Positions 6,875 through 56,555 are shown, counted from the stretch's first letter. The stretch is 64,000 nt of DNA from Candidatus Moraniibacteriota bacterium (GCA_016699385.1 CP064974.1:404466-468465); one strand, 5' to 3'. Numbers and translations: made by a program. The notes: generated by a model from the letters alone, not told the origin.

Positions 6875-6948
6875 GGACAATTAGCTCAGCTGGTTAGAGC
6901 GCTGCATTCACATTGCAGAGGTCGCTGGTTCGAGTCCAGCATTGTCCA
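6875..6948 (+). tRNA. tRNA-Val (anticodon CAC)
   Basis: Manual cloverleaf: 7-bp acceptor GGACAAT/ATTGTCC, D-arm GCTC/GAGC, anticodon stem CTGCA/TGCAG with loop TTCACAT, T-arm GCTGG-TTCGAGT-CCAGC. No encoded CCA. Confidence 0.8.
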
Positions 6949-6977
6949 CAAGTTCCATGATTTTTTAGAGAATTCTT

Positions 6978-20402: not shown

Positions 20403-20464
20403 GAGGAGGAAAAATGATAGCTTTCGCACTTTCACAACTCCAGAAATGAGAGGGGTACATAAAG

Positions 20465-20704
20465 ATGCAACACCAAATATACGGATTTAGAGTATGGAAC
20501 AATACAGCAAACCGTCGCTGTTACCAATGTGGAGCAATTCTCCCCGAAGGTTTGTATATTCGTTGCGGAAACCATTTCTTCTGTTTCTCGCAAATGCCAA
20601 ATTCCTGCTATTCGAGGTGGGTAGGGGAAGTATTTCCCCCAAGCATGGTAAAAAGCGCTATAGAAGAGGGGGCAGCCTTCGATATGACTCTTCAATCCTG
20701 CTAG
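20465..20704 (+). CDS. Small putative zinc-ribbon protein
   Basis: 79 aa with the pattern CYQCG...IRCGNHFFC. A GAGAGGGG Shine-Dalgarno-like sequence lies about 8 nt upstream of the ATG. A terminator follows at 20762. Confidence 0.35.
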   Translation: MQHQIYGFRVWNNTANRRCYQCGAILPEGLYIRCGNHFFCFSQMPNSCYSRWVGEVFPPSMVKSAIEEGAAFDMTLQSC

Positions 20705-20761
20705 ATCGGGATATAAAGTGTTACACTCATGTAAAATAAAATGAGGCTGTGCGGAACATAA

Positions 20762-20795
20762 AAGCCGATTCAAAATGGAATTCGGCTTTTTATTT
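20762..20795 (+). terminator. Rho-independent terminator (AGCCGATTC-loop-GAATTCGGCT followed by TTTTTATTTTT)
   Basis: Seen directly in the sequence. Confidence 0.45.
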
Positions 20796-20956
20796 TTCTC
20801 TCTCAATGAAAATTGAGTGTCCTTAAGAATTATAGAGTGAGTTATAAATAAGCTTGACTGTTTAGGAAGGGGTAATGATTCTATCGTAAGAGTAAGGGAG
20901 GAGGGGTAAGAAAGAAATAAAAACAGCATAGATGTGTGTTGGTTCTCAAAAATGAT

Positions 20957-20984
20957 ATGTCGCATAATGTAAGTTATGCGACAT
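20957..20984. promoter_or_regulatory. Perfect 11-bp inverted repeat ATGTCGCATAA-N6-TTATGCGACAT with an adjacent TTGACA
   Basis: Seen directly in a 400-bp ORF-poor spacer. Confidence 0.3.
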
Positions 20985-21025
20985 GTTGACAGTTTTTGAA
21001 GACAGAGACACTTGTTTTGCAACAT

Positions 21026-21060
21026 GAAAAAAGCCGATCCACAATCTATATGGGTCGGCT
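21026..21060. terminator. Bidirectional hairpin terminator (AAGCCGATCCA-loop-TGGGTCGGCTT) with U-runs on both strands
   Basis: An 11-bp stem with one G-U pair. On the minus strand it is followed by TTTTTT, just downstream of the gene ending at 21119. Confidence 0.5.
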
Positions 21061-21118
21061 TTCCTTTCATGGTGTCCCTCTTTCTTTTTATCTACGCACC
21101 TTTTAGAACTCTCATTTG

Positions 21119-43301: not shown

Positions 43302-43871
43302 ATGTGTTTCAATAGGAAATGCACATTAACAACTACTCAAAACACACAAGGTGAAGCCGTGAAGAGGATACGAGGAGTCATTCTGGTAGCAGTTGCCATT
43401 CTTGTCCTTTTTTCTGAAACATTTCCCGCTATTGCCTCCGCAAGAGAGGCTCGCCTCGTCTTCGATCCAAATAGGCACACGCTCACATATTTCTCCGCAA
43501 CGGGAGCTCGCAAAGTCTATCGGGCAACCGGTGGCGCAGACTGGTGCCCAGATATCAAGCGCCCCTGCAAGACACCTGCCGGCACCTATCGCATCGGCAT
43601 AAAATACGGCCCCAAGTACCGCTCGAAGACCTATCCCCTCGCCTGCTATCAACCCTGCAAAAATGGCGCATGCAAACCGAAGCCGGCTTGCGGAGCAGCA
43701 ATGCCTCATTTCATGAAATTCGCCGGAAAACGTTTCGGTATTCATGCGGGAACTGTCTCACGAAACAATTCTCACGGGTGCATTCACGTCCCATCCTCGG
43801 TCGCTCGTTTTCTCTCAGACACCCTTCCTATCGGGACACTGGTCACCGTGCTCCCCTATATTCACCGATAG
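43302..43871 (+). CDS. L,D-transpeptidase (YkuD domain) with Cys-rich N-terminal region
   Basis: The catalytic motif HAGTVSRNNSHGCIHV is present. An N-terminal hydrophobic anchor is present. A GTG start at about 43359 is possible. Confidence 0.7.
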   Translation: MCFNRKCTLTTTQNTQGEAVKRIRGVILVAVAILVLFSETFPAIASAREARLVFDPNRHTLTYFSATGARKVYRATGGADWCPDIKRPCKTPAGTYRIGIKYGPKYRSKTYPLACYQPCKNGACKPKPACGAAMPHFMKFAGKRFGIHAGTVSRNNSHGCIHVPSSVARFLSDTLPIGTLVTVLPYIHR

Positions 43872-43956: not shown

Positions 43957-44823
43957 TTAATGACTCTCCAGAACAGTGTGTTCATCAGAATGAGAAGGGG
44001 GAGATTGCGCAGAGGGCGATTTCGCACTATTAGCGTCGTTATCTTTCACAGAGGAATCTTCTTTGGAAAAATGCTCTTGAGATTTCCCTTCTTGAGTATC
44101 GTCGTCCAGATGTGACGCCGTATCATGACTCGAAAGAGGAGTCTTCTCGTCTGATAGAGATATTTCTTCTGAAGCAGACTCGTCATCACAGACTTCGCCC
44201 GGAGAAGATTCTCCTTGATCACCCGCCTTCTCGAGAGAATCTCCACTATCATGAGATTCATTATGTTCCTTGTCTTTCTCTTTATCTCCTCCCTCTTTTT
44301 CTGATTCCTCTCGAGACTTTTTCTTTTCTGATATATGAGAAAACGTCTTTCGAAGGACATCACTTCGCCACGTATCATTATTCGGATGAAATGCTCTTGC
44401 CTCGAAATCGACTTGCTTCCCCTCTGGAATTTTTATGCACTTTCCATCAAAAAGAGAACCATTTGTGCGCGGATCACCGTCATCCGAAAATTTATAGTAA
44501 ATATTCGCCGAGGTAAGTGACGAAGAGAGACGAATGCAATTGCGCTTCTCCTCTATGTGAATATCCGGCATCCACTCGCCCGTCCCGATGTTATTAGACC
44601 GGAGCTGATCATTATCGCTAAAAGCCGCATTGGTAGAAAATGAAAATGCCAAAGCCGGACTCAAAAATACCGCAACCAGAAACCCAAGCCGTTTCGTCCA
44701 GGGAGAGAAAATCGTCGCTGACGGCGCGACATAGACCAATTTGAAATCGGGTACCCGCTTGCGAAACCGCCACACCCGAGGGCGTTGCTTCTGTGCGATG
44801 ACGCTGTCAATAGTTCGTTTCAT
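43957..44823 (-). CDS. SipW-cognate-signal-peptide protein with a globular domain and a C-terminal acidic/Ser-rich tail of about 150 aa
   Basis: The N-terminal hydrophobic segment ends in AFSFSTNAAFSDND, resembling the A-x-F-S/N-D motif of TasA-type signal peptides. The tail is rich in E, D, S and K. Confidence 0.5.
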   Translation of the reverse strand: MKRTIDSVIAQKQRPRVWRFRKRVPDFKLVYVAPSATIFSPWTKRLGFLVAVFLSPALAFSFSTNAAFSDNDQLRSNNIGTGEWMPDIHIEEKRNCIRLSSSLTSANIYYKFSDDGDPRTNGSLFDGKCIKIPEGKQVDFEARAFHPNNDTWRSDVLRKTFSHISEKKKSREESEKEGGDKEKDKEHNESHDSGDSLEKAGDQGESSPGEVCDDESASEEISLSDEKTPLSSHDTASHLDDDTQEGKSQEHFSKEDSSVKDNDANSAKSPSAQSPPSHSDEHTVLESH

Positions 44824-46190: not shown

Positions 46191-46760
46191 CTAGTTATCC
46201 GTAGGAGCAACCGACTCCGCAACGAAGATTTCATCCCAGGTGCATTCCTGATTTTGTGCACCATTGTCAGCCTCATCATCAAGCTGTGCTCGCTGTTGGA
46301 CGACTTGTGTCCAGTTGGCTGGCACAGTGGCGAAGGGAGGATTCCCCGTCAATTCCACGCGCTCCACCGATCCAGCAATGTCTGTCAATTTCCCCTCATA
46401 CACCGTCCGCTCTCGCTCATTGCCGCCAGCATATCCGGTCGTCATGGTGAGATTGGTAAGCGGACATGCCGATCCTTGCAAATTATCAGCGTACATATAC
46501 AAGCGAACTGGCACGGTGCTCTTATTCCACACAGCACCACGAGCCCATTCGGTGTATTGCCCTGGCACGAGATTGCTCGTCGCAATCGGCTTTGCCATAA
46601 CGCCCTGACCAGCCTCACCTTTCGCATCGATTTCCACAGTAGCGGTGCTAATCGTGTTTCCATCAATGGAATCAGTTGCTGAAAAGAAAGAGTAGGTCGC
46701 GCCACCCGACACCGAAACTGCTGCCAGAATAATCACCAGACTCTTCATGATATTTTTCAT
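46191..46760 (-). CDS. TasA/camelysin-family (SipW-cognate) secreted protein, paralog
   Basis: The signal peptide ends SGGATYSFFSATDS. It has a similar size and composition to the previous gene. Confidence 0.6.
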   Translation of the reverse strand: MKNIMKSLVIILAAVSVSGGATYSFFSATDSIDGNTISTATVEIDAKGEAGQGVMAKPIATSNLVPGQYTEWARGAVWNKSTVPVRLYMYADNLQGSACPLTNLTMTTGYAGGNERERTVYEGKLTDIAGSVERVELTGNPPFATVPANWTQVVQQRAQLDDEADNGAQNQECTWDEIFVAESVAPTDN

Positions 46761-47290: not shown

Positions 47291-47325
47291 ACAGCCCTTC
47301 TGCTCAATGAAAAGCAGAAGGGCAA
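47291..47325 (-). terminator. Rho-independent terminator for the minus-strand block (GCCCTTCTGC-loop-GCAGAAGGGC followed by TGTTTTTTT on the minus strand)
   Basis: A perfect 10-bp GC-rich stem plus a U-run about 40 bp after the stop of the last ORF (47364). Confidence 0.55.
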
Positions 47326-47363
47326 CGAAATTCCACGCGCTAGTGGAACACAGAGAACATTTT

Positions 47364-47855
47364 TTACTCGGCAAACGTATCTTCCAAAGATTCTCGAGGG
47401 AAAATTTTCACATACTGACCATCCGAAAGTATCTGAAACACCTTGGTAGGGATGACAACATCGAGATCCAATGGGAATTCCGGAAGCCCTGGTCTGGTAA
47501 AGAGGAGGAATGCTCGCGAATATCTCCACATAATATCGCTGTTTGCAAGGATATTCGTCAGGCGACACGGAGACGAGATAAACCGGTCAAGAGTGCTCGC
47601 AGCAACACCGTTCAGATTTGCTACCAGTCCCATATCACGAAAGAACCGCGCAAGCACCCTGTCATGGCAAGACAGACTCTGATCATCGATAAAAACAAAT
47701 ACCGATTTTTCATCCCGACTGACACGACGAGAAGGCGACAATGCCGCCGAAACGTACTGAAGGGAAGAATTAACATGCGCACACATTTGATAGTATCCTT
47801 TGCCACGGAATTTTCCGTGGCGGTTGTGATTTGCAAAGAACAGACTTGTAGTCAT
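47364..47855 (-). CDS. Hypothetical protein (last gene of the uncharacterised minus-strand block)
   Basis: 163 aa. The segment VFVFIDDQSLSCHDRVLARFFRDMGLV weakly resembles the start of a receiver-like fold. No firm motif was found. Confidence 0.3.
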   Translation of the reverse strand: MTTSLFFANHNRHGKFRGKGYYQMCAHVNSSLQYVSAALSPSRRVSRDEKSVFVFIDDQSLSCHDRVLARFFRDMGLVANLNGVAASTLDRFISSPCRLTNILANSDIMWRYSRAFLLFTRPGLPEFPLDLDVVIPTKVFQILSDGQYVKIFPRESLEDTFAE

Positions 47856-47863
47856 TCGTCAAC

Positions 47864-48574
47864 TCACGAAGAAGTCGCGAAAGTGTATGAGATGACCCTT
47901 CTCCCCTCTTGCCTCACGGGGTGATCTGGCGTCAATCCCGTTTTCCCCTGCCTCATCTCGGAGGAGTCGATGAGCATGAAGTCTTCGTCTGAGTTGCCGG
48001 TGATTTCTCCGGCAAGCACAAACATTTTCCAGGGGATCGTGATGATGGCTGGATTCCCGAGCACTTCCATGTCAATATCTAGCTTGTCTCGAGGGAGAAA
48101 AACCGCCGCCACCTGACAAGACGAGAGGCACTCTCGAGACTGAAGAAACCTCAGGAACATGCCCATGCTCGCCGTATTATTCGTACAGAGATGGAGTCCG
48201 CCATCGTCCGGCGAGTCTACTCCCAAGAATCTGGCGATTCGAGGCAAAATATTCGGCTGCAACAAGATACCTTCTTCGATGTAGAGAGCAGCTCGACGGC
48301 GTCTCCTACAGCTTCGCACTGACGCTGGTCGCTTCGTTTCAGCTTCGAGTGTCATGGTTTCTTCCCTCCAGCTTCTCATTGGGGAAATTCCCACCGTAGA
48401 ATACTGTTTTACTATCATATTGTCAAGACCATCTACTGTTCTTTCTCTGACAATAAAAATCTGCCCCACCAAAATGAAATGGCAAGGCAGAAAACGAATC
48501 CGCACGCTGGCGGAAAAAAGAAGTGCTACGGTACGCGGTTGTCCTTTTGGGTTATATCGCGGCACCCCACCCAT
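47864..48574 (-). CDS. Hypothetical protein
   Basis: An ORF tiled head-to-tail with its neighbours. The N-terminus is Arg-rich. The start is uncertain. Confidence 0.3.
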   Translation of the reverse strand: MGGVPRYNPKGQPRTVALLFSASVRIRFLPCHFILVGQIFIVRERTVDGLDNMIVKQYSTVGISPMRSWREETMTLEAETKRPASVRSCRRRRRAALYIEEGILLQPNILPRIARFLGVDSPDDGGLHLCTNNTASMGMFLRFLQSRECLSSCQVAAVFLPRDKLDIDMEVLGNPAIITIPWKMFVLAGEITGNSDEDFMLIDSSEMRQGKTGLTPDHPVRQEGRRVISYTFATSS

Positions 48575-49109
48575 CTGGCTTTGCTAGGCTTTCCCAATCG
48601 ACGAGATGCGAGTGTTTATCCGTCCTCTTGGCATGATTCGAAGGCAAAGAAGTCGGCTTGGGGTCACTCTCTGCCACTAACCCCGTAGAGGACTCGCAAT
48701 GAACGAATGCTCTGAAAGAAGAGAGAAATCCGAAAACATCCCATCGAAATGAAGCTCTTCGAAGCGCGTCTCTTTCAGCGGGAAGGAAAAGCATTTTCTC
48801 CTTCGAGAAGAAAACAACCGAATACTGCCTCTCCGCATCCTGAGATGCTTGCCCTTCAGCGAAGGCGAGCAGAGCGCTCATGCCAAAATACGACATATCG
48901 GCAAGTGTGTCATCATCGGTAAGACAAAGCTCTTTCCTGAGAAATACCTGAGCACGACGAACGGCGGAATCCAGATGCGCGCCACGCCAACCTTCAAAGT
49001 ACATGTATACCGTCCTTTTGGTCGGCTTGCTTTCCACTACCGCATTCATAGTCAACCTCCTTTCGGTTGATATTTGGGGAAATTCCCATTCACAGGCTAT
49101 TCCCCACAA
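48552..49109 (-). CDS. Hypothetical protein
   Basis: 185 aa. It overlaps the next ORF by 23 bp in operon style. Confidence 0.3.
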   Translation of the reverse strand: MWGIACEWEFPQISTERRLTMNAVVESKPTKRTVYMYFEGWRGAHLDSAVRRAQVFLRKELCLTDDDTLADMSYFGMSALLAFAEGQASQDAERQYSVVFFSKEKMLFLPAERDALRRASFRWDVFGFLSSFRAFVHCESSTGLVAESDPKPTSLPSNHAKRTDKHSHLVDWESLAKPDGWGAAI

Positions 49110-49242
49110 AGCATGTTGTCAAGAATATTTGGCAGAAACACCTCACCAAACAAAAAACGCTCGACAAAAAACCACCTGCGAAAAGTGTGCTGGTGGCTAA
49201 ATTTGAATTCACATTTTGTTGAGTGTAGCTTCGTTCTCTCAG

Positions 49243-49836
49243 CTACATAAAGAACGCTCTTCTCATTACATCTTGAACACAAATACCTTGTGACGCAACA
49301 GGATGACTAGGCTGCCGATACGCGGCAACCGGAAACACCTGCTGATAATTCCGCTTCGAATACAAATGAAACGCCTTAATCGGAATAGTCGGGTGGAGCA
49401 CGGGGAACGGATTTGGTGGAGGGTTGGGAAAGAACAGACAGAAAACAAGGGAATAATCTCCGGCACATTCTCGCAAATGCCTTTTCAGAGATTCAATACC
49501 TCTCCCAGAGGCAAAGTCAAAATAAACAACATCGCGAGTATATGGAATACCATCTTTCAGTACCACCAACCCTTCTCGCACAAGGAACGGGCGAAGCCAA
49601 AGATTCTCCCACGGTACCGGGGAGTACACTACGCCTCCGAAATCGCATAGCAATATCGGCTTCGCATCAATAGACAGATACGAGAGATCCCTATATGACA
49701 AATTGTTCATGCAACACCTCCACTTTGCACAGAAGAACTCATCGTACCGATACCGGTACGGACGATACCGCCCAACTCTATGCCTGAAGCCGCTGAGAGT
49801 CAATACCGAAAAAGAAAACAGGAGCAACTTCAACAA
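49243..49836 (-). CDS. Hypothetical protein with a proline-rich patch (NPPPNPFP)
   Basis: The likely start is the internal MNNLSYRD. No motif was found. Confidence 0.3.
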   Translation of the reverse strand: MLKLLLFSFSVLTLSGFRHRVGRYRPYRYRYDEFFCAKWRCCMNNLSYRDLSYLSIDAKPILLCDFGGVVYSPVPWENLWLRPFLVREGLVVLKDGIPYTRDVVYFDFASGRGIESLKRHLRECAGDYSLVFCLFFPNPPPNPFPVLHPTIPIKAFHLYSKRNYQQVFPVAAYRQPSHPVASQGICVQDVMRRAFFM

Positions 49837-49886
49837 TGATGAAAGTTGCTCCTACTTATTTGTGTTATCGAAATCTGCCCATCCGA

Positions 49887-50636
49887 TCAAGCATGTCGAT
49901 GCATGTTCAATCGAATCCGAATCGGTTCCCAGCACCAATAATTCCCGCCTTCTCGTCGAGTCCACGAGGCGGAAACCACGGAAAACCTCCATCGCCCATT
50001 TAGAAGTCGCTCATTCGTCATGACAGCCCAGGGGAGATTCGAATTTCCCAGCATTCCAAACTTCTCGTGACTATAGACTGGCCGAGGAACAAGGACAATA
50101 ATGCAGCATGGCTCCGCACCAAACCTTCTTAGGAAAGCCTCCCGCTCAAAAATGCCTGTCAAGTCATTGGCCTCTAGAGGATAGAAACTCAGTGATGAAG
50201 ATAAATCCACTCCTGTAGACAGAGTGGCATCGCCACACACTTCCCCGATATTCGCTCTGGCAAACCGTGTCAATGCAATGGCAATACGCCAAGAAACCGG
50301 GCGACTCTCCCACTTCCAAAGGGCAACCAGCACTCGCATAATCCTATGATTAGGACTGCCTAACGACGACAACATAATCATCCCCTCAAGAAATTTCTGG
50401 AGCGAAGGGACTGAAACAACTTCGTACGAATGTCCTCCGCGTACCACGAAAACAATTTTAACACCCCAAGAGACATTGACCAGAGATTTCCATATCGACA
50501 TCCTCGAATCGTATTCAGGCACTTTCCTTGTGAAATGAAATTCAGGAGATTCTCCAGCAAAAGCGCATGATGCGCCTGAGCGACAATGTAGACCATCGTC
50601 TTTTCGACACATTCGTATCGTTGCATATATCTCCAA
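49887..50636 (-). CDS. Hypothetical protein (N-terminal roughly 85 codons overlap the next gene in another frame and are probably not translated)
   Basis: The ORF track entry is shown. The true start is probably near 50340-50375. Confidence 0.25.
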   Translation of the reverse strand: MEIYATIRMCRKDDGLHCRSGASCAFAGESPEFHFTRKVPEYDSRMSIWKSLVNVSWGVKIVFVVRGGHSYEVVSVPSLQKFLEGMIMLSSLGSPNHRIMRVLVALWKWESRPVSWRIAIALTRFARANIGEVCGDATLSTGVDLSSSLSFYPLEANDLTGIFEREAFLRRFGAEPCCIIVLVPRPVYSHEKFGMLGNSNLPWAVMTNERLLNGRWRFSVVSASWTRREGGNYWCWEPIRIRLNMHRHA

Positions 50637-50977
50637 AGCGCGCGAACACTTGCCGCGTCACAAGTTAAGAAGGAATTATCAATGTGGATACAGCTCTCGG
50701 GCACCTGTTCATGCAGAAGCCATTGCTTCATAAGATCGCAGACCAATACGGATTCCCCTTGACCATTACGACGCCCACCTCCAGACAGAAAAACAGAAAA
50801 CCCCTTCAAATCCCGTATGCACTGAGGACGAGTACATTCCCAATAGACTGCAACCACCTCCTCAAGCCGCTTCAGCAAATCCTTACAGAGTGTACCGTCA
50901 TCAAGAACTTCTGGATTGCCACATAGGGATCCATTGCTCCCGGACACAAAAACGACAACTCGATTGACATAAGACAT
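50378..50977 (-). CDS. DUF218 / YdcF-ElyC-SanA-like protein
   Basis: VVVFVSGSNGS...FLSGGGRRNGQGESV...DNSFLTCDAASV...VAQAHH follows the DUF218 pattern LGxG...SGG...E(A)...S.nT.eNA...vTs.yH. Confidence 0.35.
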   Translation of the reverse strand: MSYVNRVVVFVSGSNGSLCGNPEVLDDGTLCKDLLKRLEEVVAVYWECTRPQCIRDLKGFSVFLSGGGRRNGQGESVLVCDLMKQWLLHEQVPESCIHIDNSFLTCDAASVRALWRYMQRYECVEKTMVYIVAQAHHALLLENLLNFISQGKCLNTIRGCRYGNLWSMSLGVLKLFSWYAEDIRTKLFQSLRSRNFLRG

Positions 50978-51197
50978 GTTTAAATCTCCCAAAGTTTTGC
51001 ATTTTTAAGAAAACTCCCCTCCTCACAACTTCTCGTCAGAGAGTACTGTCAAATCAAGGAAGGTGCCACTATAAAACTACATCATTTCATACATTTTGTC
51101 AATAGTGACAAACAAAAAGCTTGGATACACGCTGATTATCCAAGCTTTACTAAAAGAGCACAATGGGAACTCTCCACACTCTTCCATGCCCAGTTAA

Positions 51198-51779
51198 TTA
51201 GAAGGCGACAGGAAGATGATTCTTATCACGCAGCATCTCGCCTCTTCTGGAAATATGAAATTTCAACTCTCGCGCTGGCATCAAAGAGTGGTAATGAGGA
51301 GCAGGGCATGTCACCGATTCAGGATGATTGACATCCTGAGTGCATCTCCGTTGCAGAGAGCATCCCGAGCAAAGACCAATCTGCGCGATATATTGAGGAA
51401 CGCACACTGCCCACGCTGAGGAAATTTCCATATCGCGCAAGCTAGATGCTATGGCCGACGATGTCTCCCTCGACGTATCTTTCGGAAGGATGAGGAGAAG
51501 AATTCCGTTTGGCGATTGTCCTTTGACAATCTGGTAGAATATACTGCCTGCCACGTAGTCCTTATAGTAGTCTATACGAAAATCTACGGTATCTGTCTCC
51601 ACTCCAGATATGGCAAGCCTTGATGTGTGAATGTACTGAGACAAACGCCTTATTTCATTATCACTCACAGATTCCCCAACTCTCTTATTTCCTTCTTTAA
51701 GCAAGTACACTGTCACCAGCACTTGTTCCCGATGATACCTTGCATTTCCCGCACTTTGTTCTGCACGAATAGGAGTCAT
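51198..51779 (-). CDS. Hypothetical protein with an Hsp20-like C-terminal signature (NGILLLILPKD) and a Cys-rich tail
   Basis: A strong AGGTGA Shine-Dalgarno-like sequence lies 5 nt before the internal ATG (MTPIRAEQ). NGILLLILPK resembles the Hsp20 NGVLTI-LPK strand. The tail carries CSGC...C...C. Confidence 0.3.
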   Translation of the reverse strand: MTPIRAEQSAGNARYHREQVLVTVYLLKEGNKRVGESVSDNEIRRLSQYIHTSRLAISGVETDTVDFRIDYYKDYVAGSIFYQIVKGQSPNGILLLILPKDTSRETSSAIASSLRDMEISSAWAVCVPQYIAQIGLCSGCSLQRRCTQDVNHPESVTCPAPHYHSLMPARELKFHISRRGEMLRDKNHLPVAF

Positions 51780-52059
51780 TATGTCACCTCTGTGATGTGA
51801 AGTTTCAATGTAGCAAAAAAGCAAATGGGCACTATATAGACCACATTGATTATTGTTAAAGAAGATTTCCTTGCGTTTCATTTCAATACTAATTCATTAG
51901 TAGTTGAATGCGCGCAAATGACACTCGCATAGTACACTGTCGTGTATAATTTGTCAATATTTATAAACTTTTTCTAGAAGAATACGATATTTTGAAAAAA
52001 ATCATTAAAGTATCCGCAAGAGTACGCTATACTGGAGATGCATTTCTTCCTCTTCTTTC

Positions 52060-55000
52060 ATGCATCACTCGTCTCACGCTATGAAACCATGCTTCCCAGA
52101 AAGCGACTACACGCTCTCAAATGATTCTTTTGAATCGCACCTCAATGCAATCGGCAATGGGTACCTCAAGGCACGGGGATGTTTCCTGACAAGTTACCGC
52201 CCTTCTTCGGATGACGGGCTCTTCTTCTTTATTCGCGACACAGATTCGGAACAGCGCTGGTCAGCAACGCCAGCGCCCGTCTTCACTCGCCCTGAGGCAT
52301 TTCGGATGGATATCAGCAAACGATCGGCACATATCGAGCGAAGCGACAACTCAATAGACACAGCACTTGACATCCTCGTGCCCGAAACCGGCGACTTCGA
52401 GCTTCGGCGACTCACCCTGACCAATCGTAGCGATACTGTTCGTCGACTCGAAGTGACCAGCTCAGTCGATATCATTCTCCTCTTCGACCGTTTACGCGAC
52501 TCTCTGCATCAAACATTTAGCAATATGTTTATCGGTGCAGAATTTTCTCGAGAGTGGACTGCCCTCCTTTATCACCGCCGATTCTTCGATGACCCCCAGC
52601 ACTTTCCCTTCTTCATGCACCGGATATTTCTCGACAGACCAGGCGAATTTCTCGGCTTCGAAACAGATCGAGAAGCCTTCATCGGGCGCGGACAACCTTT
52701 CGGACGCCCACTTGCACTCGATCGCCCACTCAAAAACACTGCTGGCTATATCCTCGACCCACTTGCCAATCTCCGCGCCGCAATTACCCTCGAACCAGGA
52801 AAAAGCTCCTCGATTTTCTTTTCAAACTCCGCTCATTTCTCTCCCGAACAACCAGCGAGCTTGGCAAATAGATTTCCAGATATCGACTCAGTTCAAGCAT
52901 TTTTCCTCTCTGAGTTCGAACAAGACAATGTTTCTCGAAAAGAAATCCCCTGCAATAGCGATATCGTAGCCCCAGTCACGAAAATCATTACACCTCCAGC
53001 ACCTCTTTCCCCCTTTGATACGAATGCGCTCCTCTTTTGGAATGGATTTGGCGGATTTGATCCAGAAACACACGACTACCGAATGCGTATCTGCCCAGAA
53101 AAGCTCCCGCCACAGCCCTGGGCAAATTTCCTTGCCAATCCCGACTTCGGCATGATGACCACCGAAAACGCCCTCGGCACAACGTGGTTCAAGGACAGTA
53201 AACACGGACGACTCACTCCTTGGAACAATAATCCAGTAAGTGATCCGCCGGCGGAAATTCTCTTCGTTCGCCAGACAGACTCTCGCGAAACATGGTCACT
53301 CACACCCGCTCCACTTCCTGCTTCATCCGAATATCATGTGACACACGGGAGAGGGTTCACCAAATATGAAGGCGGGCGTGGCAAGCTTCGACACACACTC
53401 ACCGCTTCGGTACACCCCACACTCGCCCTCAAGTATCTTGCTGTTGAGTTTGAAAATCGCGAAGCGAAGCCGACTGATTTTGACCTCATATTCTTCATGG
53501 ATACTCCGACAGAAGCATTTTCCGAAACCGTACCCCGCCAATACTCGCCACGTTTTCTTTCGGAAGAAAATGCCTTCCTTCTTGATCCATCCACATTTGT
53601 CCCATTTCCAGACAAAGAATCCATCCCCTTCTTTGCTGCTATCACTGCCGACAGGCCTCTTCAACTCATTACATGCAGCAAAGAGCAATTCTTTGGCATT
53701 TCCGGATCACTCTCCGCACCAAAAAACATTTCCGAAATAGATGAGAAAATTAACCCGAAATCCGCAGCTGATACCTGCATCGTCGTGCAAGTGCACTTCT
53801 CACTCGGTCCCCATGAAAAGCAGTGCACTACCATTGCCGTCTGTGCCGGAACAACTGAACAAGACGTGCGAGAACTCCTCCTAGTAGCAAGGAAGGAAAT
53901 AGAACACCAGCAACCATTTTCACTCGAGAGCGTTCGCCATTACTGGAAACGCGACGATACACTCCCAACACTTTCGACACCGGATGACTCACTCAATATA
54001 CTTTTTAATACCTGGCTCCCCTATCAGGCACTCGTGTCGCGCCTCTGGGCAAAAATGGGTTTTTACCAACCCGGAGGCGCCTTTGGGTTTCGCGACCAAC
54101 TGCAAGATGCGCTCGCTCTCTGGTATATCGATCCAGCATTAACCAAGCAACACATCCTCAAATCAGCCGCTCAACAATTCGAAGACGGCAATGTCCGCGC
54201 GTGGTGGTCTCCAAACTCGGGCTATGGTGTCAAGAACGCTACATCGGATCATCCACTCTGGCTCGCCTGGGTGACCGCAGAATACATCCGCCTCTCTGGA
54301 GAAACAGATTTCCTCAATGAGGAAACTTGCTTTCTCTCAGATGACCACGATGCAGAAACACAATTTGACGTCAAACGACACAAACCATCTCTCGTCTCCG
54401 CATCACTCCTCGAACACTGTCTGAAATCTATCGAATATGTCTCTGTGTTTGGCGTGCACGGACTTCCTCTTATACGAGGTGGCGACTGGAATGATGGCTT
54501 CAACCGCATCGGAAACGAAGGGGAAGGCGAAAGCGTCTGGCTCGGTTTCTTCCTCTTCTCTGTACTCGAGATGTTCATTGCAATACTCTCCGCACGAGGT
54601 GACAGCGATCGAGTCGCCATCTACCACAAACGAGCAATCACGCTCAAGAAAAATCTCAACACTCACGGCTGGGGTGGACACTGGTTCCTTCGCGCCTTTT
54701 ACGATGATGGGACTCCACTGGGTGCGGAGAGCAATCACGAGTGTCGCATTGATGCTATCGCACAGAGTTGGTCTGTCATCTCTGATGCCGGAGAACACGA
54801 GAAATCAAAAGAAGCCATGGAAAATCTCTTGCACTTCCTCTACGATCCGGAATCAAAAATCCTCAGACTCCTTGATCCCCCGTTCAACGATCTCTCCAAG
54901 AAAAATCCCGGCTATATCAAAGACTACCCGCCTGGTATTCGCGAAAACGGCTCGCAGTACAATCATGCGGTATTTTGGGCAGCAGAAGCATTCGCCAAAC

Positions 55001-55458: not shown

Positions 55459-56190
55459 ATGTCTGAAATAAGCCCCCAGCTTCAACAAGAGAAAAACAGA
55501 AATCCAATCGATACTGACGCTGTCTGGATTGTCATTCCTGCGTACAATGAAGCGACTGTCATTGCGTCTGTTATCAAAGAAATCCGCCAAGCCGGATATG
55601 AAAATATCCTCGTCGTAGATGATGGAAGTACCGACCATACCTTCGATGTCGCCCGAAGTACCGGCATCGTCACTCTCCAGCACCGACTCAATCGCGGAAA
55701 AGGTGCCGCAACGAAAACCGGTATTGAAGCAGCAAAGTTGCTCGGTGCACATATCGTCGTCACTATGGATGGCGACGGCCAACACAATCCAGGAGACATC
55801 CACACCCTCATCGAACCCATCCGCAAGAGAAAAGCCGATGTCGTACTCGGTACTCGACTCAAACACCCCGAAGGCATGCCCTGGTATAAGCAAGTGCACA
55901 ACACTATCGGCAATGCAATTGTCTGGTATCTCTACGGTCTCTGGGTATCCGACAGCCAATCCGGCTTCCGAGCCTATTCACGCCGCGCCATAGACCGAAT
56001 CGACACACGGACGGATCGCTACGAATACGACAGCGAAGTCATCCGAGAAATAAAACGCCACAAACTTTCCTACAAAGAGGTCTCTATCGAAGTTCGCTAC
56101 ACCGAATACTCCATGGGGAAATTCCACAAACAAAGCCTTGCAAACGGCATAAAGACCGTCTTCCGTATGCTCTTTCATATGATAAAATAG
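55459..56190 (+). CDS. GT2 polyprenyl-phosphate sugar synthase (DPM1/GtrB-like), soluble form
   Basis: The motif set IVIPAYNEA...DDGSTD...DGDGQH is present. Confidence 0.8.
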   Translation: MSEISPQLQQEKNRNPIDTDAVWIVIPAYNEATVIASVIKEIRQAGYENILVVDDGSTDHTFDVARSTGIVTLQHRLNRGKGAATKTGIEAAKLLGAHIVVTMDGDGQHNPGDIHTLIEPIRKRKADVVLGTRLKHPEGMPWYKQVHNTIGNAIVWYLYGLWVSDSQSGFRAYSRRAIDRIDTRTDRYEYDSEVIREIKRHKLSYKEVSIEVRYTEYSMGKFHKQSLANGIKTVFRMLFHMIK

Positions 56191-56195
56191 TCTCT

Positions 56196-56555
56196 ATGAC
56201 AGTATTCTCCCTCCACTTCTATCAAGCTGCTATCTTTGCGCTTTCAGCCTTCATGGTTTGGCAAGGTGGCAAACAATATTTTCGTCGTGAAGGAGGACAA
56301 ACACTCTTCAAATTCTCTGTGCGCGTCATCGTTTGGGGCGGTATGTCTGCCATTGCTGTCTTCCCAAAACTCAGCAATGACCTCGCACAGTTCATTGGCA
56401 TCGAGGGCAATATAAATGCCGTTATCATGGTCGGCTTTGTCCTTGTCTTCCTTATGATCTTCAAACTCCTCTCCGCAATAGAAACCCTCGAACGACAAAT
56501 AACCATTCTGACACGAAAAGATGCCCTTACCGAAATTAACCTTGAGAAGGACTAG
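56196..56555 (+). CDS. Small multi-TM protein (DUF2304-like) commonly paired with GT2 DPM1-like genes
   Basis: 119 aa with three or four helices. Its position immediately after the GT2 gene fits the usual pairing. Confidence 0.45.
   Translation: MTVFSLHFYQAAIFALSAFMVWQGGKQYFRREGGQTLFKFSVRVIVWGGMSAIAVFPKLSNDLAQFIGIEGNINAVIMVGFVLVFLMIFKLLSAIETLERQITILTRKDALTEINLEKD

Follow-up and report, generated by a model that had tools for sequence, protein, structure and literature searches.

Moraniibacteriota and other bacteria of the candidate phyla radiation (CPR) are, to our knowledge, uncultivated, and for a large part of their genes no function has been assigned. The locus described here is a block of seven minus-strand genes, designated O1 to O7, at positions 47364-51881 of a 64,000-nucleotide stretch of DNA from Candidatus Moraniibacteriota bacterium (GCA_016699385.1 CP064974.1:404466-468465; hereafter the window), divergent from a GH94 gene. 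Small genes for immunity or defence can form fast-evolving arrays, such as the orphan immunity-gene clusters of polymorphic toxin systems, which share with this block the tandem arrangement of co-oriented genes for small cytoplasmic proteins, partial paralogy, rapid divergence, recombination between strains and variable membership, whereas the block has no recognised toxin, secretion or mobility genes, gives no hits to defence models, and keeps a conserved position beside a glycan cluster across lineages. Repressor operators can overlap the transcription start of sigma-70 promoters; like them, a palindrome in the block starts 5-6 nt past the -10 hexamer. With respect to fold, the nearest comparison is with Rossmann-like ligand-binding domains (Argonaute MID, CARF, LacI/PBP lobes and MoaB/MogA). 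Proteins of the DUF218 family (PF02698; YdcF of E. coli, PDB 3CA8, SanA and ElyC) have been implicated in the balance of peptidoglycan and enterobacterial common antigen synthesis (PMC12176290, PMC3879167), and a putative catalytic triad of Thr, His and Glu has been proposed for SanA (PMC12176290).

As judged by profile and homology searches, the seven proteins make up six families, one being a divergent DUF218 family and five having no match in Pfam, NCBIfam, PHROGs or PADLOC. The five orphan families, the cluster and a promoter-palindrome motif within it are unmatched in the libraries searched, the genes being already annotated only as hypothetical proteins; orphan clusters are expected in CPR genomes, and hence this one is not very surprising to the specialist. 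Its conserved order, its fixed place between surface-glycan loci and its shared promoter-operator element would together make it a defined, testable unit for the regulation or servicing of the envelope in episymbiont-type cells; a cis-regulatory motif that can be recognised in a CPR lineage is in itself a rarity.

Coding status and conserved order of the genes

The seven maximal open reading frames (ORFs) that a preliminary description had placed in the block are present (51198-51881, 50378-50992, 49887-50636, 49243-49836, 48552-49109, 47864-48574 and 47364-47855). When 1.84 billion representatives were searched exhaustively by phmmer, with the seven concatenated proteins as query, 28 homologues spanning all seven ORFs were retrieved, in identity tiers of about 95-100, 70-88, 44-50 and 28-39%, and none outside one clade. 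Homology of this depth, down to about 30% identity and with the gene order conserved, is the decisive evidence by which all seven minus-strand ORFs are judged to be real protein-coding genes. In the gene models adopted here (140-199 aa), the starts are those with ribosome-binding-site support, and such a site precedes every one of the seven, including the strong AGGTGA site pointed out earlier for the first ORF. By exact sequence, the window is part of an NCBI metagenome-assembled genome (MAG) of Candidatus Moraniibacteriota with a contig of 1.11 Mb. The NCBI proteins for O1, O2 and O4-O7 (QQR77927 to QQR77921) are each named "hypothetical protein", and the NCBI models of O1, O2, O4, O5 and O6 are exactly those given here. 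That of O7 starts at 47855 and encodes 163 aa rather than 140, and is probably 23 codons too long, because the relatives are called at 140 aa with a start equivalent to 47786, and because a 1-nt indel in a related locus (L085) shifts the upstream ATG out of frame; the extra stretch (47787-47855) holds a conserved palindrome, not conserved coding sequence. The head-to-tail tiling noticed at first applies to the maximal ORFs, whereas the real genes are separated by spacers of 100-220 bp, with the exceptions of O2/O3 and O6/O7. Through a 4-nt ATGA overlap of the O2 stop and the O3 start, O3 is predicted to be translationally coupled to O2.

That the block might be non-coding or decayed DNA with chance ORFs, or might carry its real genes on the plus strand, was considered in view of its codon usage. 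Codon log-likelihoods, for which 27 long window genes served as the training set, were compared over six frames and were low throughout the block (-0.13 to +0.03, against +0.10 to +0.30 for housekeeping genes), and a 205-aa plus-strand ORF overlaps O7. The minus ORF frame nevertheless scored best of the six in every gene, and together with the homologues found for seven of seven ORFs in conserved order, the ribosome-binding sites, the identical models called by NCBI and ratios of nonsynonymous to synonymous substitution rates (dN/dS) below 1, this makes the idea exceedingly improbable. Decayed DNA, which the preliminary description had kept as an alternative, is ruled out by the multi-tier homologues, which do co-occur in conserved order, and by the matching NCBI models.

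The relatives of the GH94 protein, for which itself no identical entry was returned by an exact look-up, place the host in Moraniibacteriota, and the order in which a GH94 gene is divergent from O1, O2, (O3), O4, O5, O6 and (O7) recurs in L092, in L093/L094, in L095/L096/L097 and in the near-identical strain L087. After the divergent GH94 gene, L092 carries O1 to O5; L095 and L096 carry two extra genes followed by O1, O2, O4, O5, O6 and an O7-like gene; and L097 carries O1, O2 and O4 before the contig ends. A weak relative of O1 is followed by O2, O4, O5 and O6 in L093 and L094 (complete genome CP064989.1), O3 being missing from both the L093 and the L095 lineages. The O6-O7 adjacency is kept in L083, L085 and L086, and in L089 O2 lies directly beside GH94, with two small genes farther on behind the same type of promoter. 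For relatives with a GH94 protein 67-75% identical to that of the window, the identity of the small proteins is 28-52%.

On its GH94 side the block adjoins a conserved divergent glycan cluster (GH94/GT2/DUF2304/GT4/AsnB). The far flank differs in content from lineage to lineage, but surface or glycan genes are found there in each case: the window has a TasA/SipW fibre locus, L093 has GH81 together with a cellulose-synthase-like GT2, and L095 has PMT_2, a deacetylase and a chitin-synthase-like GT2. The neighbours assigned in the window comprise a camelysin/TasA-like protein, an S24/SipW-like peptidase, GH94, GT2, GT4, AsnB and a methyltransferase. The position beside GH94 is constant in every lineage with a readable flank. 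An accessory island in the mobile sense, as first supposed, has accordingly been rejected: no repeats flank the block; the sole tRNA of the window lies at 6875-6949; no integrase or phage-family match was obtained with the seven block proteins and ten flanking proteins scanned; and the GC content of the block (0.45-0.52) is like that of the surroundings, with no compositional break. Thus, as far as the sequences compared indicate, the cluster is conserved but confined to one CPR lineage, a subclade of Moraniibacteriota.

The block is absent from L002-L004. In L002, from a more distant member of the Moraniibacteriota in which GH94 is 60% identical (L002:9992-13369), a co-oriented gene upstream (L002:4491-8975) encodes a protein of 1494 aa that ends in a Glycoamylase domain (PF10091); these two genes are separated by a small ORF on the minus strand, to which no family could be assigned. 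In L089, O2 is followed (L089:10748-14032) by genes for a membrane-anchored 220-aa protein and an 819-aa protein, the latter faintly matching CARDB and having a hydrophobic N-terminus that resembles a signal peptide, and then by the two small palindrome-promoter genes.

The DUF218 protein and the orphan families

O2 is a divergent cytoplasmic YdcF-type DUF218 protein, so that the DUF218/YdcF-like core mentioned in the preliminary description has been placed correctly, although O2 itself stays below every Pfam and NCBIfam threshold, with no match even at E values up to 1. The connection is made through P0020, which O2 matches in a whole-library phmmer search (E 8.4e-13) and which passes the PF02698 profile (40.5 bits, cut-off 27.6 bits); the P0020 gene adjoins GH94 in L089. 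The fold of O2 agrees with a solved DUF218 structure, but a sequence-level match in the PDB to YdcF was not obtained from O2. The O2 family further differs from the known DUF218 proteins in a conserved C-terminal extension (ISQGKC...C.YG.W), and it adds to this known family a new branch of great divergence.

The remaining proteins bear out the initial impression that recognisable domains are almost lacking. None of the seven matches Pfam, and the sole NCBIfam hit, that of O7, is far below threshold (E 0.053; 13 bits, cut-off 250); ten more divergent members and neighbours likewise gave no Pfam match, and nothing but repeat-protein artefacts or noise was obtained when PDB sequences were searched with P0020 and with profiles of O1, O2 and O3. 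In O1, the Cys4 tail described earlier is real: C137, C140, C146 and C158 are invariant in four divergent members and are consistent with a metal site. The Hsp20-like strand, however, finds no support, as O1 has no Pfam or NCBIfam hit and none of the six clusters of its family carries a Pfam domain. All four of these clusters that have a source name are from Moraniibacteriota. O1 homologues are 43-45% identical in L001, L092 and L095, and a metagenome scan with the O1 alignment recovered a single contig, of the same species as L001. Homologues of O3 are 43% identical in L001 and L092, those of O4 46-52% in L092, L093 and L095, and those of O6 40-44% (P0018, L083, L093 and L095); those of O5 include P0005 (80%) and P0024 (31%), the members in L093, L094 and L095 being recovered by a hidden Markov model (HMM) and the fifth gene of L092 by hhalign (86% probability, E 4.6e-6). 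O3, O5 and O6 have no detectable relatives outside their own families.

The O4 and O7 families, in contrast, align with each other by hhalign (93% probability, E 3e-7) and are, by this comparison, paralogues. Their predicted structure is a small Rossmann-like alpha/beta fold. Among the proteins of the block, two AlphaFold2 (AF2) models are reasonably confident (pLDDT, the per-residue confidence score, 71-78), and the low-Z fold matches include Argonaute MID, CARF and SAVED domains. The receiver-like N-terminus proposed for O7 was not upheld, O7 not showing the combination of Response_reg profile match, CheY-like best structural match and conserved phospho-acceptor Asp that is expected of a CheY-like receiver.

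By eye, a common pattern can be followed through O1 and O3-O7, consisting of a hydrophobic strand ending in an acidic residue or Gly, a helix L.R.F...G-L, a strand hhhF.P and then IPW..F. Profile comparison gave E 0.0056 for O5 with O6 and E 0.04-0.36 for the remaining O3-O7 pairs, most of these alignments being co-linear and near full length; pairs with O1 or O2 gave E 0.02-0.97, and an HMM of the O4/O7 family fails to retrieve the other families. We would offer it as a hypothesis, not as a result, that O1 and O3-O7 form one paralogous superfamily. A helix-turn-helix candidate in O6 (ILPRIARFLGVD) has been discarded, as on inspection it coincides in relative position with the O7 segment RVLARFFRDMGL, which is helix 1 in the O7 model.

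The seven proteins have no transmembrane segments and are predicted to be soluble. The Arg/Trp richness ascribed to them earlier holds for Arg (8.5%, against 5.6% in the window's long genes) and not for Trp (1.9% against 1.4%), the excess of which is essentially that of O3 alone, a Trp- and Arg-rich protein with 4.9% Trp. A stronger anomaly than Arg is the four-fold excess of Cys (2.7% against 0.68%).

Predicted transcription units and the promoter-palindrome element

The block is not one operon, since five hairpin-plus-U-run terminators (z -3.9 to -6.3) and five promoter-like sites (before O1, O2, O4, O5 and O6) are found along it (Table 1); it is predicted to comprise five co-oriented units, namely [O1], [O2-O3], [O4], [O5] and [O6-O7]. 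The terminal hairpin with U-run noticed in the preliminary description is indeed a strong terminator, but it is one of five and not the single terminator of the block, and the single unit with its own terminator has to be given up. What endures of the proposed undescribed multi-gene system is a set of real, uncharacterised genes that co-occur in the same order elsewhere. The spacer between O1 and GH94 (51882-52059) is AT-rich, as had been described (GC 0.38-0.40). The promoter and leader of O4 are conserved in L095. As a separate observation, the likeness between 51090-51113 and 51945-51968 centres on the -35 TTGACA of the O2 and O1 promoters, which suggests that these promoters have been duplicated or are co-evolving.

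Table 1. Genes and predicted signals of the O1-O7 block, in window coordinates.
Feature	Position	Strand	Details
O1 promoter-like site	51929-51957	-	TTGACA, 17 nt, TACTAT; in AT-rich spacer shared with GH94
Second O1 promoter candidate	51831-51859	-	
O1	51198-51779	-	193 aa; AGGTGA ribosome-binding site before ATG at 51779; IPJ67_02170, QQR77927.1
Terminator-like hairpin + U-run after O1	51116-51148	-	-14.5 kcal/mol, z -4.0
O2-O3 promoter-like -35 region	51090-51113	-	Visible TTGACA; 24-nt repeat of 51945-51968, 79% identical
O2	50378-50977	-	199 aa; IPJ67_02165
O3	49887-50381	-	164 aa; NCBI gene here has a different start
Terminator-like hairpin + U-run after O3	49819-49854	-	-18.5 kcal/mol, z -5.6
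O4 promoter-like site	49775-49803	-	TTGACT, 17 nt, TAGAGT
O4	49243-49710	-	155 aa; GGAGG ribosome-binding site; IPJ67_02155
Terminator-like hairpin + U-run after O4	49170-49198	-	-11.6 kcal/mol, z -3.9
O5 promoter + palindrome	49074-49122	-	TTGACA, 17 nt, TAGCCT; 5 nt on, palindrome TGGGAATTTCCCC at predicted transcription start
O5	48552-49049	-	165 aa; AGGAGG ribosome-binding site; IPJ67_02150
Double hairpin terminator after O5	48460-48514	-	-26.7 kcal/mol, z -4.8
O6 promoter + palindrome	48379-48426	-	TTGACA, 17 nt, TATTCT, then palindrome as at O5
O6	47864-48355	-	163 aa; GGAGGG ribosome-binding site; IPJ67_02145
O7 hairpin/palindrome	47802-47821	-	CCACGGAAAATTCCGTGG; GGAA..TTCC core, no U-run; -15.5 kcal/mol, z -5.5
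O7	47364-47786	-	140 aa; IPJ67_02140
Intrinsic terminator of O6-O7 unit	47294-47323	-	12 pairs + U-run; -23.1 kcal/mol, z -6.3

The O5 and O6 promoters share an element in which a palindrome follows TTGACA-N17-TAnnCT at a distance of 5-6 nt and precedes the start codon by 25-35 nt. The 15-mer TTGGGGAAATTCCCA (plus strand) occurs in two identical copies in the window (48379-48393 and 49074-49088), and the exact 12-mer GGGAATTTCCCC likewise has two copies in the 64 kb, both in the block at these promoters. The composite element is also found upstream of the O5 homologues in L084, L087, L092, L093, L094, L095 and L096, of the O6 homologues in L083, L087, L093 and L095, of O7-type genes in L082 and L084, and of the two small genes of L089. 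Over 12 aligned instances, upstream of genes of three protein families in several lineages, TTGACA, TAnnCT and T.GGAATT..CC are invariant (the base after T varying in one of the 12) while the leader outside these blocks varies, so that the palindrome is as conserved as the promoter hexamers. Among the first 92 loci fetched (at least 1.5 Mb, mostly from unrelated bacteria) the pattern occurs only upstream of these genes; of five loci added afterwards, four (L093-L096) carry it again. Viral contigs scanned for the pattern gave no match, and an Rfam search at a permissive threshold found nothing relevant in the block and no match to the element.

The occurrence of a promoter with the palindrome TGGGAATTTYCCC ahead of O5, O6 and O7-type genes, in every lineage examined, points to a small shared regulon. 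With its palindromic core of 11-13 bp (GGGAA-T(T)-TTCCC), it is a putative operator of a dimeric regulator, overlapping the transcription start; being also transcribed, it may act instead in the 5' leader RNA. A related hairpin, CCACGGAAAATTCCGTGG, stands directly 5' of the O7 ribosome-binding site and is kept in L085 and L086, where its loop is altered. Elsewhere, the sequence TGGAATTTCCCC (56115-56126), which departs from the palindrome at one position and lies inside the 3' end of the GT2 gene and about 70 nt before a DUF2304-like gene (56196-56555), has no promoter hexamers in front and is probably due to chance.

Possible roles and evolution of the block

We tentatively favour, with rather less than even confidence, an accessory module that is peculiar to the lineage, is linked to the envelope-glycan machinery next to it and is composed of a DUF218 enzyme, a Cys4 protein and small non-catalytic Rossmann-like proteins, with a shared-operator regulon of O5 and O6-O7. 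This proposal derives from the conserved adjacency and from the known biology of DUF218 proteins, not from direct evidence. In such a module, the palindrome would serve as the operator of one dimeric repressor, so that O5 and O6-O7 would be switched on together by a signal; the DUF218 protein would have as its substrate a precursor linked to a nucleotide or lipid, in line with proposals for SanA and ElyC; and the orphan proteins, in which conserved catalytic residues are lacking, would be binding or adaptor subunits tuning the neighbouring machinery. The fast evolution of the genes could then be attributed to biotic pressure on the surface being serviced.

A number of observations weigh against this proposal. 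The linkage to the glycan genes is drawn solely from conserved adjacency, and the block is served by promoters of its own and by a regulatory motif that was not observed at the GH94 genes. The orphan families are without a recognisable catalytic or binding motif. In the O2 family, the invariant residues (L38, S65, V79, L87, C96, V132, Q134, A138, S149, C160 and Y162) include Ser, Gln, two Cys and Tyr and thus differ from the Thr/His/Glu triad proposed for SanA, none of these three residues being among the invariant columns; the triad could not be mapped onto O2, as no sequence alignment to YdcF or SanA was obtained. Membership varies, O3 or O7 being missing in some lineages and extra genes being present in others. 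In L087, a 290-aa gene with CBM96 and collagen-triple-helix repeats lies on the opposite strand between O4 and O5 (L087:3397-4269), where the spacer of the window (49050-49242) holds only a terminator and a promoter. P0003, P0010 and P0015, variants from other, near-identical assemblies, are 95-98% identical to O2, O5 and O4, respectively, over part of their length and then change frame; they may be real pseudogenes or errors of low-coverage short-read assemblies. Finally, the dN/dS values against L087 (O3, 0.37; O4, 0.66; O5, 0.53; O6, 0.91; O7, 0.68), together with that of O7 against a 70%-identical relative (0.59), suggest that the genes are weakly constrained or partly diversifying.

Some of these features would also fit a hotspot of gene turnover, where young, fast-evolving orphans of marginal or redundant function stand beside GH94 by history; the near-zero codon scores, the divergence of the small proteins next to a much better conserved GH94, the restriction of homologues to one clade, and the atypical Arg and Cys contents speak for this explanation, as do the dN/dS values (O6 in particular), the frameshifted variants, the variable membership and the insertion in one strain. 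We nevertheless consider it rather unlikely, because the ORFs, ribosome-binding sites, order, promoters and palindrome persist at 30-50% protein identity, a persistence across diverged lineages that requires long-term purifying selection, and because dN/dS is below 1 in every gene; the two reasonably confident AF2 models also speak against it, and the frameshifts may be no more than assembly errors. If the genes were only orphans of fast turnover, the locus would still show cleanly how, in a reduced genome, gene families arise, paralogues form and strains recombine.

The comparison with L087 (window 47364-52410) also reveals a mosaic. The N-terminal part of GH94 and O1 are identical in DNA and O2 has a synonymous divergence (dS) of 0, whereas dS reaches 0.04-0.15 once O3 is entered and the proteins are there 82-95% identical, a jump indicating a recombination breakpoint inside the block. 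In L082, a TasA-like gene 90% identical to that at 46191-46760 of the window lies directly downstream of an O7-family gene only 37% identical to O7 (L082:83-517 and L082:1048-1617), which would mean very fast divergence of the O7 family or else the presence of another paralogue in that slot. Both patterns recall an array for conflict, in which small paralogous cytoplasmic proteins, serving in immunity, as antitoxins or against phages, diversify in an arms race and are co-induced from a repressor-controlled promoter. The fast divergence, the O4/O7 paralogy and the weak co-linear similarity among O3-O7 would agree with such an array, as would the repressor-style operator at the transcription start and the low-Z fold matches to Argonaute MID, CARF and SAVED. 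However, PADLOC gave no match at E up to 1 and PHROGs only two insignificant ones (E 0.1-0.25), no nuclease, ATPase, toxin or secretion component is recognised in the block, and its chromosomal position is fixed, without signatures of mobility; a role in conflict therefore seems to us quite improbable.

Returning to the accessory module of the envelope, a bolder version can be drawn in which a single small Rossmann-like domain, not described before, has given rise to O1 and O3-O7 as six paralogues of extreme divergence. With the DUF218 protein, these might then constitute a repressor-controlled, clade-specific system, with TGGGAATTTYCCC as its operator, that senses a signal and remodels or protects the surface glycan or fibre layer. 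We regard this version as doubtful; if true, it would add a new family and a regulon without counterpart among the described bacterial systems.

Outside the block, three further ORFs of the window, at 43957-44823 (minus strand; no Pfam match), 43302-43871 (plus) and 20432-21070 (minus), have codon scores as low as those of the block (0.01, -0.01 and -0.14, respectively) and may be additional orphan or fast-evolving genes.

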